From Escherichia phage ECO111 5-P, in the sequence record OR844767: 59,207 nt of DNA; one strand, 5' to 3'. Shown piece by piece: positions 326 through 372 of this stretch. The stretch's first letter is position 1. Each line of letters starts with the position of its first letter. The translations under genes were made by a program, and so were the position numbers. The notes under the pieces are model-generated. The model was not told the origin of the DNA, did no database searches, and saw nothing but the letters and a program-made list of their open reading frames with translations.

Positions 326-372
326 CGGTTTACTGTTTTACGGGTTTACTTTCTACGGTTTTACGGGTTTAC
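326..372 (-). repeat. tandem 15-bp repeat GTTTTACGGGTTTAC (x2, plus a third partial copy) in the 5' leader of the SSB-like gene
   Basis: plus-strand copies at 335-349 and 358-372 with a partial CGGTTTAC at 326-333; lies between the nuclease stop (369-371) and the SSB start (314). Confidence 0.6.

Follow-up and report, generated by a model that had tools for sequence, protein, structure and literature searches.

An Array of Repeats of About 8 nt Ahead of the SSB Gene of a Chi-Like Phage as a Candidate Autogenous Translational Operator

The spacer between the exonuclease gene and the gene of the single-stranded DNA-binding protein (SSB) in Escherichia phage ECO111 5-P (OR844767) was found to consist of six A-rich units of about 8 nt. 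The facts point to an SSB gene-specific cis-element beside the ribosome-binding site, one that works on single-stranded nucleic acid and is read in the sense orientation. Our tentative interpretation, held with somewhat less than even confidence, is that the array may be an autogenous translational operator resembling that of T4 gp32, built as a phased lattice without a pseudoknot. From the sequence and by analogy, we infer that the array would act as RNA, that SSB would bind to it, and that this binding would repress translation.

Genomic Context of the Spacer

The window, that is, the whole stretch of 59,207 nt that was analyzed, was the complete genome of a Chi-like siphovirus of the genus Chivirus in the family Casjensviridae, with a base composition of 56% G+C. 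The first 3 kb was about 97% identical to Salmonella phage Chi, and the gene order was collinear with Chi genes 1–10 in the reversed orientation, with the array located between gene 6 and gene 7. An exact direct repeat of 77 nt was present at the two ends (1–77 and 59131–59207), which is the assembly overlap of a circular contig. Because of the circular assembly with this terminal overlap, the SSB gene was split across the window ends. In addition, several phage records labelled Staphylococcus, Listeria, Enterococcus or Xanthomonas contained Chi-like or Yonseivirus-like sequence with 72–97% identity, such as OR849940, GU169904 (SA1) and OQ756160 (XAP3), and were probably contaminated or mislabelled.

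The equivalent of Chi gene 6 (369–1709, minus strand) encoded a DUF2800/PD-(D/E)XK exonuclease of 446 aa (Pfam DUF2800, E = 7e-71; PDDEXK_1). Its last codons encode an acidic tail, and the purine-rich mRNA there lengthens the unstructured stretch. The exonuclease stop codon TAA (369–371, minus strand) lay inside the first repeat unit, so that the array took up the entire intercistronic spacer, which measures 54 nt from this stop codon to the Shine–Dalgarno sequence (SD) of the SSB gene. The SD, GAGGA (322–326, minus strand), took the slot of a seventh unit and was separated by 7 nt from the ATG start codon (312–314, minus strand). In the record of phage Siskin, the corresponding position bears the annotation ribosome_binding_site, and the SSB protein could be aligned with Enc34 ORF6 (PDB 5ODJ) from residue 1. 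The SSB gene (Chi gene 7, gp7; 198 aa overall) comprised a 5′ part at 1–314 and a 3′ part at 58848–59130, both on the minus strand, with the acidic tail ...DWEDEV at the end. A hairpin with a T-run, similar to an intrinsic terminator, followed directly after it (58799–58823, minus strand), and Siskin has an annotated terminator at the corresponding position; the SSB gene is thus the last cistron of the gp5–exonuclease–SSB unit.

The sequence-only reading had placed the repeats in a 5′ leader, which did not hold, as the region is an intercistronic spacer within an operon. A search for an internal promoter near the spacer predicted no promoter-like site; thus, the "leader" should be read as an intercistronic translation-initiation region, and an internal promoter that would make the spacer a true 5′ leader was rejected.

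Anatomy of the Repeat Array

The array (327–372, minus strand) was read directly as six units of about 8 nt, and TRF gave a period of 8 with 5.9 copies. The units were GTAAACCC (U1, 372–365, containing the exonuclease TAA stop), GTAAAACC (U2, 364–357), GTAGAAA (U3, 356–350), GTAAACCC (U4, 349–342), GTAAAACA (U5, 341–334) and GTAAACC (U6, 333–327), all on the minus strand. Five of the unit cores were GUAAA and one was GUAGA, and units within the single array differed at 2–3 of 8 positions. CC was present in each Chi unit, the spacer contained 13 C versus 9 G, and the array was about 59% A+T.

The repeats had first been described as tandem copies of a longer element, GTAAACCCGTAAAAC. The minus-strand letters agreed with that description, with GTAAACCCGTAAAAC at 372–358, CGTAGAAA at 357–350, GTAAACCCGTAAAAC at 349–335 and AGTAAACC at 334–327, followed downstream by GAGGA (326–322), TATTAAG and ATG (314–312). 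The end of the array abutted GAGGA, which bears out the placement of the repeats directly 5′ of the SSB ribosome-binding site. Two exact copies of the 15-mer GTAAACCCGTAAAAC were indeed present; because they stand 23 nt apart, they are not strictly tandem, and the true underlying repeat is the unit of about 8 nt, not the 15-mer. With up to 3 mismatches, the 15-mer occurred 9 times compared with 1.33 expected (0 of 100 shuffles reached 9), and four of the nine matches were inside the array. When both strands of the 59-kb genome were searched, at least three GTAAA within 40 nt were found only at this site, and no second array of such a kind was detected in the genome by TRF or by GTAAA clusters. 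A near-copy at 6350–6364 (plus strand) with 2 mismatches to the 15-mer was within chance expectation and was rejected as a second copy.

Repeats of other periods were also noted in the genome. A 12-nt tandem repeat with 3.3 copies, encoding GGAKGGAKGGAK, was present at 2312–2351 in gp4, a protein of unknown function with an ...EEDDV tail. Furthermore, a cluster of 9-nt tandem repeats with up to 5.6 copies, TCCGGGTCT, was located at 32175–32280; these are presumably codon-phase repeats in a structural gene.

Sequence Constraint in Chivirus

The 61 nt comprising the array, the SD and the ATG were 100% identical in 92 of 99 matching phage records, whereas such identity was found in just one record for each of the flanking 61-nt coding segments (of 59 and 51 records, respectively). 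When eight distinct genomes of Chivirus were aligned, variation was seen at 1 of 54 sites in the spacer versus 42 of 219 third-codon sites in the 110 codons on either side of it (Fisher p = 6.5e-4). Judging from these comparisons, the array is under strong purifying selection, and the spacer is the most constrained sequence of its neighbourhood.

Distribution of the Array

An equivalent array was found at the same place in 12 of 13 Casjensviridae lineages sampled. Arrays with a TRF period of 7–9 were present in 16 of 17 SSB leaders (964 nt) versus 29 in the other approximately 100.8 kb, as counted with one lenient TRF setting and with the rest of the same loci plus the window as background; most of the 29 were 9-nt codon-phase repeats. 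The array-bearing leaders had a period of 7–9, mostly 8 (9 in two lineages and 7 in one), contained 2.6–8.6 copies, and reached SSB identities as low as 30–34%. Every other Casjensviridae lineage sampled had A-rich sequence at the same place, and all had a detectable short-period array except Enc34, which had only a degenerate array remnant.

The units of the relatives differed in sequence. Those of Yonseivirus were GTAAATCT, GTAAGATG, GTAAACCC, GTAAATTC and GTAACCC, those of Zhonglingvirus SAP012 were GTAAAACM (8.6 copies), and those of Redjacvirus were GTAAAACC (4.6 copies). Newforgelanevirus MA12 had ACGAAACC or GAAAACC and Cenphatecvirus Saba had CCGTAAAA or CGATAAAC, each with about 7 copies. 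Arrays were also present in Lavrentievavirus (period 8, about 4.6 copies), Maxdohrnvirus (period 9), Fengtaivirus (period 8–9, about 2.6 copies) and an unclassified Aeromonas phage (GAGTAAACC, period 9), and the units were CGAAAYCN in Sanovirus and ACGAACG (period 7) in Salvovirus. Uncultured relatives with an SSB only 40–45% identical possessed arrays too, for instance GGAAACCC/GACAACCC with 7.6 copies at locus L043. The unit core common to the lineages was C-G-(U)-A-A-A followed by C-rich or variable positions, and the C-G dinucleotide and the A-run were kept in nearly every unit of most lineages. The copy number changed via recent super-unit duplications of 15–16 nt or 23 nt, which are typical of slippage.

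In one contig (L072/L341), the module consisted of SSB, DNA polymerase and endonuclease genes, with the exonuclease 6 kb off and a small unrelated ORF upstream of the SSB gene. An array of CGTCAATA with 4.8 copies extended from the stop codon of this small ORF to the SD of the gp2.5-like SSB gene. Therefore, it is the start of the SSB gene, and not the end of the exonuclease gene, that the array accompanies.

Outside these lineages, distant Enc34-type SSB genes (≤35% identity; IMG/VR and metagenomes) showed no array except L072, and the BPP-1 leader showed none. The array was also rejected as a trait of the T7-like gene 2.5 archetype, as the T3-, K11- and SP6-like leaders contained nothing comparable in a sample of 80 loci with 53 distinct leaders. 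As T7-like phages and distant homologues are without arrays, the feature is, by this sampling, lineage-limited and not a property of the protein fold. All array-bearing lineages probably share ancestry, and the constant period may come partly from descent and slippage, not from selection on length. T7 and its closest relatives have GAGAAACCAAACGAAACC ahead of the gene 2.5 SD. The T7 gene 2.5 leader (L139/L140; NC_001604, 9107–9157) reads ...CUCUGAGAAACCAAACGAAACCUAAAGGAG..., with two GAAACC units just before the SD; these resemble MA12-type units and were kept only in the close relatives of T7, not in T3-, K11- or SP6-like phages.

The register of the units relative to the AUG was not conserved, with offsets mod 8 from 0 to 7 across the lineages. 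Stop codons in all three frames were rejected as a conserved property, since Chi has TAA every 8 nt, but arrays of CGAAACC or GGAAACCC are stop-free. A scan of IMG/VR for GTAAAN3 ×4 was rejected as a detector because its at least 120 matches came mainly from A+T-rich genomes and an unrelated multi-copy gut-phage element, and the genes downstream of the listed matches were non-SSB apart from SAP012. A scan of genome contigs for the array gave two Chi-like contaminant contigs only and no prophage lineages. The multi-copy intergenic element, AAAGGTAAAAAGGTAAAAAAGTAAAAAGGTAAAAAGAGCCTTCTTGC, occurred in IMG/VR gut-phage contigs (L227, L247, L256, L318, L319 and many others). Each copy was made up of four GTAAAAAG octamers and a conserved tail; a locus had up to five copies, often a short distance ahead of genes. 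This repeat is genome-wide and distinct from the SSB array, and it may be a promoter or leader module.

SSB Protein and Its Footprint

The gene product, which had been called SSB-like, proved to be a genuine ssDNA-binding protein by its match to Pfam PF10991, the "Enc34 ssDNA-binding protein" family (E = 8e-31), and its 88% identity to the crystallised SSB of Enc34 (ORF6; PDB 5ODJ/5ODK/5ODL), with E = 1e-116 for PDB 5ODJ. The ssDNA-contact residues Y31, Y38, R113 and W151 were kept, and Y157 was replaced by F (numbering of PMC5686142 plus 1). Enc34 ORF6 has the T7 gp2.5 fold, and its crystal with oligo(dT) contained eight ordered nucleotides per monomer and a ninth phosphate across the OB-fold, with some of the protein–ssDNA contacts made via base-specific hydrogen bonds (PMC5686142). 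In addition, T7 gp2.5 has a site size of 7–8 nt and a cooperativity of about 110 (PMC10359462). The repeat period of the arrays (mode 8, range 7–9) is equal to the published footprint of one monomer. By analogy with these proteins, an array of about three to nine units would hold as many monomers side by side, up to the SD.

To our knowledge, no autoregulation has been reported for the T7 gp2.5 structural class. Our literature search on SSB autoregulation related to this class found no report, and no description of the element was found in the literature searched on Enc34-type SSBs, Casjensviridae intergenic repeats or SSB translational repressors. The present protein resembles the Enc34 ORF6/T7 gp2.5 family in its 88% identity to Enc34 ORF6, PF10991, the contact residues and the acidic C-terminal tail. 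The difference is the putative cis-regulatory element, none having been described for the family in the literature searched.

Acidic tails ending in (D/E)(D/E)V-COOH were present in at least nine proteins of this phage, far above chance for about 75 genes. These were the primase (...GEWDDEV), the DUF2800 exonuclease (...DDDDEV), the SSB (...DWEDEV), gp4 (...EEDDV), the small terminase (...DEVDDDEV), a recombination-associated exonuclease (phrog_724) and three proteins of unknown function. The genes were located at 3015–5597(+), 369–1709(−), 58848–59130(−), 2094–2495(−), 13573–14649(+), 12029–12430(+), 21968–22684(+), 53845–54414(−) and 46684–46977(−). The tails are comparable to those of T7 gp2.5 and gp4 or to the tip of E. 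coli SSB, which suggests a shared C-terminal docking motif.

Predicted RNA Structure

The 70-nt segment at 323–392 (minus strand) had a predicted MFE of −1.1 kcal/mol and was the third least structured of 23,656 sliding 70-nt windows on both strands; the two ranked ahead of it overlapped one region antisense to ORFs. The sense strand of the arrays was 41–52% A. RNAalifold gave 0 consensus pairs for positions −80 to +15 in nine lineages, with pseudoknots as such outside the model, and the single-sequence folds were weak and mostly weaker than those of shuffles. An Rfam scan with E up to 10 returned sub-threshold noise only, and the leader was rejected as a member of a known RNA family. The predicted accessibility of the SD and AUG was 0.61 for the native sequence, 0.67 with the array deleted, and 0.58 ± 0.09 with random spacers. 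As the accessibility was not above that after deletion or random replacement, the array as an insulator keeping the SD open was unsupported in silico.

Comparison with Known Systems

The sequence-only reading had likened the repeats to the operator by which T4 gp32 represses its own mRNA. This likeness stood for the unstructured, UAAA-like repeats adjacent to the ribosome-binding site, but the nucleating pseudoknot had no counterpart. Among established systems, the nearest is the gene 32 operator of T4, with its variants in RB69 and RB49. In T4, more than 40 nt of unstructured RNA contain the UUAAA/UAAA repeats and the ribosome-binding site, and free gp32 coats this stretch cooperatively after nucleation at a 5′ pseudoknot; in RB49 the repeats are kept and the pseudoknot is missing (PMC535899). 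The present element shares with it the site in the translation-initiation region of the SSB's own mRNA, an unstructured A-rich segment of more than 40 nt including the ribosome-binding site (here in silico only), and several (U)UAAA-like repeats running into the SD and AUG. The repeats without a pseudoknot correspond to the RB49 variant. However, the T4 operator has a 5′ pseudoknot, whereas the present leader showed no conserved structure by RNAalifold and Rfam, and the T4 repeats are irregular, whereas those found here are phased at about 8 nt, one footprint each. Moreover, the present element is intercistronic and begins in the stop codon of the upstream gene, unlike the T4 operator, and its SSB is of the PF10991, T7 gp2.5/Enc34 type and not a gp32 homologue. 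By this comparison, the element at best "works like" the gp32 operator and is not a member of that family.

A phage ssDNA-binding protein that acts as a translational repressor on an unstructured leader is also known from gene V protein. The gene V protein of filamentous f1/M13 represses gene II mRNA, as mentioned in PMC535899. The shared feature would be a phage ssDNA-binding protein doubling as a repressor, as proposed here; however, the target of gene V protein is the mRNA of another gene, without a phased repeat array, and the protein family is different. TRAP binds arrays of (G/U)AG repeats in the Bacillus trp, trpG and trpP leaders, with triplets 2–3 nt apart and a preformed 11-mer ring. 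The proposed operator would share with TRAP a row of short phased repeats, one for each subunit, and binding near or over the SD that blocks translation; it differs in its units of about 8 nt and the would-be cooperative linear filament, and there is no homology.

Proposed Operator

In the autogenous operator proposed here, the six A-rich units of about 8 nt (about three to nine in relatives) would form an unstructured single-stranded track leading into the SD and AUG, with a unit length equal to the stretch occluded by one SSB monomer. When ssDNA is available, SSB would be titrated off and the open A-rich leader would be efficiently translated. When free SSB builds up, monomers would bind cooperatively to the units, and the SSB filament would spread over the SD and AUG and block 30S binding. 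As an outcome, SSB synthesis would follow the supply of ssDNA and would not depend on the exonuclease cistron upstream.

Several results are consistent with such an operator: the position of the array from the exonuclease stop to the SSB SD, the strong conservation of the 61 nt compared with the flanking coding sequence, and an architecture kept across the family while the unit sequence drifts. The linkage to the SSB gene in L072/L341, the gene specificity (no other such array in the genome), the unstructured single-stranded target and a period equal to the SSB-family footprint also argue for it, as do the T4 gene 32 precedent and RB49, which keeps the repeats without the pseudoknot. On the other hand, RNA binding is unreported for Enc34-type SSBs, and the leader has no equivalent of the pseudoknot at which gp32 nucleates, which would leave the repeats as the only source of specificity. 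Arrays are missing from T7-like phages, which have the archetypal gp2.5, and from distant homologues apart from L072, and Enc34, the most-studied family member, has the weakest array. Moreover, the period drifts (two lineages have 9 and one has 7), the units do not keep a fixed phase with respect to the AUG, and all of the positional evidence fits an SSB-independent enhancer equally.

A more specific version of the operator is a sequence-specific "molecular ruler", in which each unit of about 8 nt would dock one SSB monomer in register by base-specific contacts, and the unit number (about three to nine) would set the free-SSB threshold for closure of the ribosome-binding site. This version, which draws on the analogy with the Enc34 complex, is considered doubtful.

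Alternative Explanations

The array might instead be an SSB-independent translational enhancer or standby site, with the A-rich track recruiting 30S either by way of ribosomal protein S1 or by standby binding. This would yield SSB, a protein required in stoichiometric amounts, in large excess over the co-transcribed exonuclease, and the repeats would reflect growth and shrinkage by slippage. We regard this as the main alternative, which would account for most of the observations above, but as rather unlikely. Unstructured A-rich sequence (41–52% A) was found directly 5′ of the SD in every lineage, as in A-rich or S1-type enhancers, and SSB is the last cistron of the operon and needs expression uncoupled from, and above, that of the exonuclease. 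The slippage-type super-unit duplications through which the copy number varies would also agree with it. Precedents are the TMV omega leader, which has three 8-nt ACAAUUAC repeats as well as CAA repeats, and AU-rich leaders that bind S1, all of which are established enhancers of translation in E. coli; like the present array, omega is unstructured and A/C-rich and places short direct repeats 5′ of the start site of a gene with high expression. In addition, the gene for a major tail protein in one locus (L330) had an 8-nt GTAAA array 64 nt ahead of its start codon, which likewise fits an enhancer. However, omega is G-poor, whereas the present units each keep a G (usually CG), and the present array is limited to one gene in one phage family and has a period equal to the footprint of the gene product. 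Other highly expressed genes of this phage (capsid, tail) are without such an array, the conservation of the C-G and A-run exceeds what unstructuredness requires, the predicted SD/AUG accessibility was not raised by the array, and the period of 7–9 is left unexplained. The operator and the enhancer are not mutually exclusive, because efficient initiation is a property of the gp32 leader as well.

A role at the DNA level, with the tandem octamers as iterons of an origin or loading site for the primase–helicase (gp2) or another DNA-binding protein, seems improbable. Such repeats have precedents in the TGTTCACC octamers of the P4 alpha protein and the GAGC repeats to which AAV Rep binds. An array that occurs once, lies in the replication module and has about 59% A+T in a genome of 56% G+C would suit an origin, and so would its conservation in the genus and divergence between genera, as expected of an initiator–iteron pair, and the 860-aa primase with a P-loop domain encoded by the phage. 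However, the 8-bp period, compared with a helical spacing of about 11 or 22 bp in iteron-type origins, sets successive sites on different faces of the duplex. No A+T-rich unwinding region flanks the array, because coding sequence abuts both sides. Furthermore, the array always stops at the SSB SD and follows the SSB gene when the neighbour changes, and its units differ from one another at 2–3 of 8 positions. The region at 6030–6300 is a better candidate for a control region or an origin than the SSB spacer. This A+T-rich non-coding region beside an HTH gene (gp1) contains short tandem repeats (TRF, 6126–6223) and repeated GGTTACAAG/CTTGTAACC motifs in both orientations, and it looks like an operator cluster or origin.

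There is also little likelihood that the array is a single-strand RNA target of another kind, such as a Rho loading site, a site of RNase E processing to a stable SSB message, or a site for another phage or host RNA-binding protein. The long unstructured stretch with more C than G (13 versus 9) and CC in each Chi unit would fit such a target, and T4 gene 32 mRNA, which is also processed upstream of its operator, offers a parallel. However, the untranslated spacer of 54 nt between translated cistrons is short for Rho loading, and the Salvovirus units (CGAACGT and similar) are without YC. Likewise, no U-rich RNase E-type motifs were present, the repeats are not 3-periodic, unlike Hfq ARN sites, and the single GGA makes CsrA unlikely.

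Finally, functionless microsatellite-like filler made by neutral slippage, although consistent with the differences in copy number and unit sequence between genera, is effectively refuted by the conservation data, as 92 of 99 records are identical while neighbouring codons vary, 1 of 54 spacer sites versus 42 of 219 third-codon sites is variable, and the array is retained in 16 of 17 SSB leaders.

Conclusions

The leader with its array is conserved across a whole family of flagellotropic and plant-pathogen phages, and genome annotation of Casjensviridae currently leaves the feature unlabelled. Compact and portable, the element could serve as a strong and perhaps self-limiting translation-initiation region. 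The crystal structure of the protein–nucleic acid complex and the natural variants with three to nine units favour dose-response work.

As far as we know, T4 gp32 is the textbook and almost the sole case of a replication SSB that gauges free ssDNA through repression of its own mRNA, and the specificity of its operator is still debated. If the autogenous operator proposed here is true, the contribution of the repeats would be isolated, the pseudoknot being absent. A second, structurally unrelated SSB family would then use a simpler, repeat-only leader, and the strategy would be general. If the "molecular ruler" were also true, the array would give SSBs of the T7 gp2.5 type their first cis-regulatory RNA, and would represent a pseudoknot-free, repeat-encoded SSB homeostasis that evolves through the gain and loss of units.
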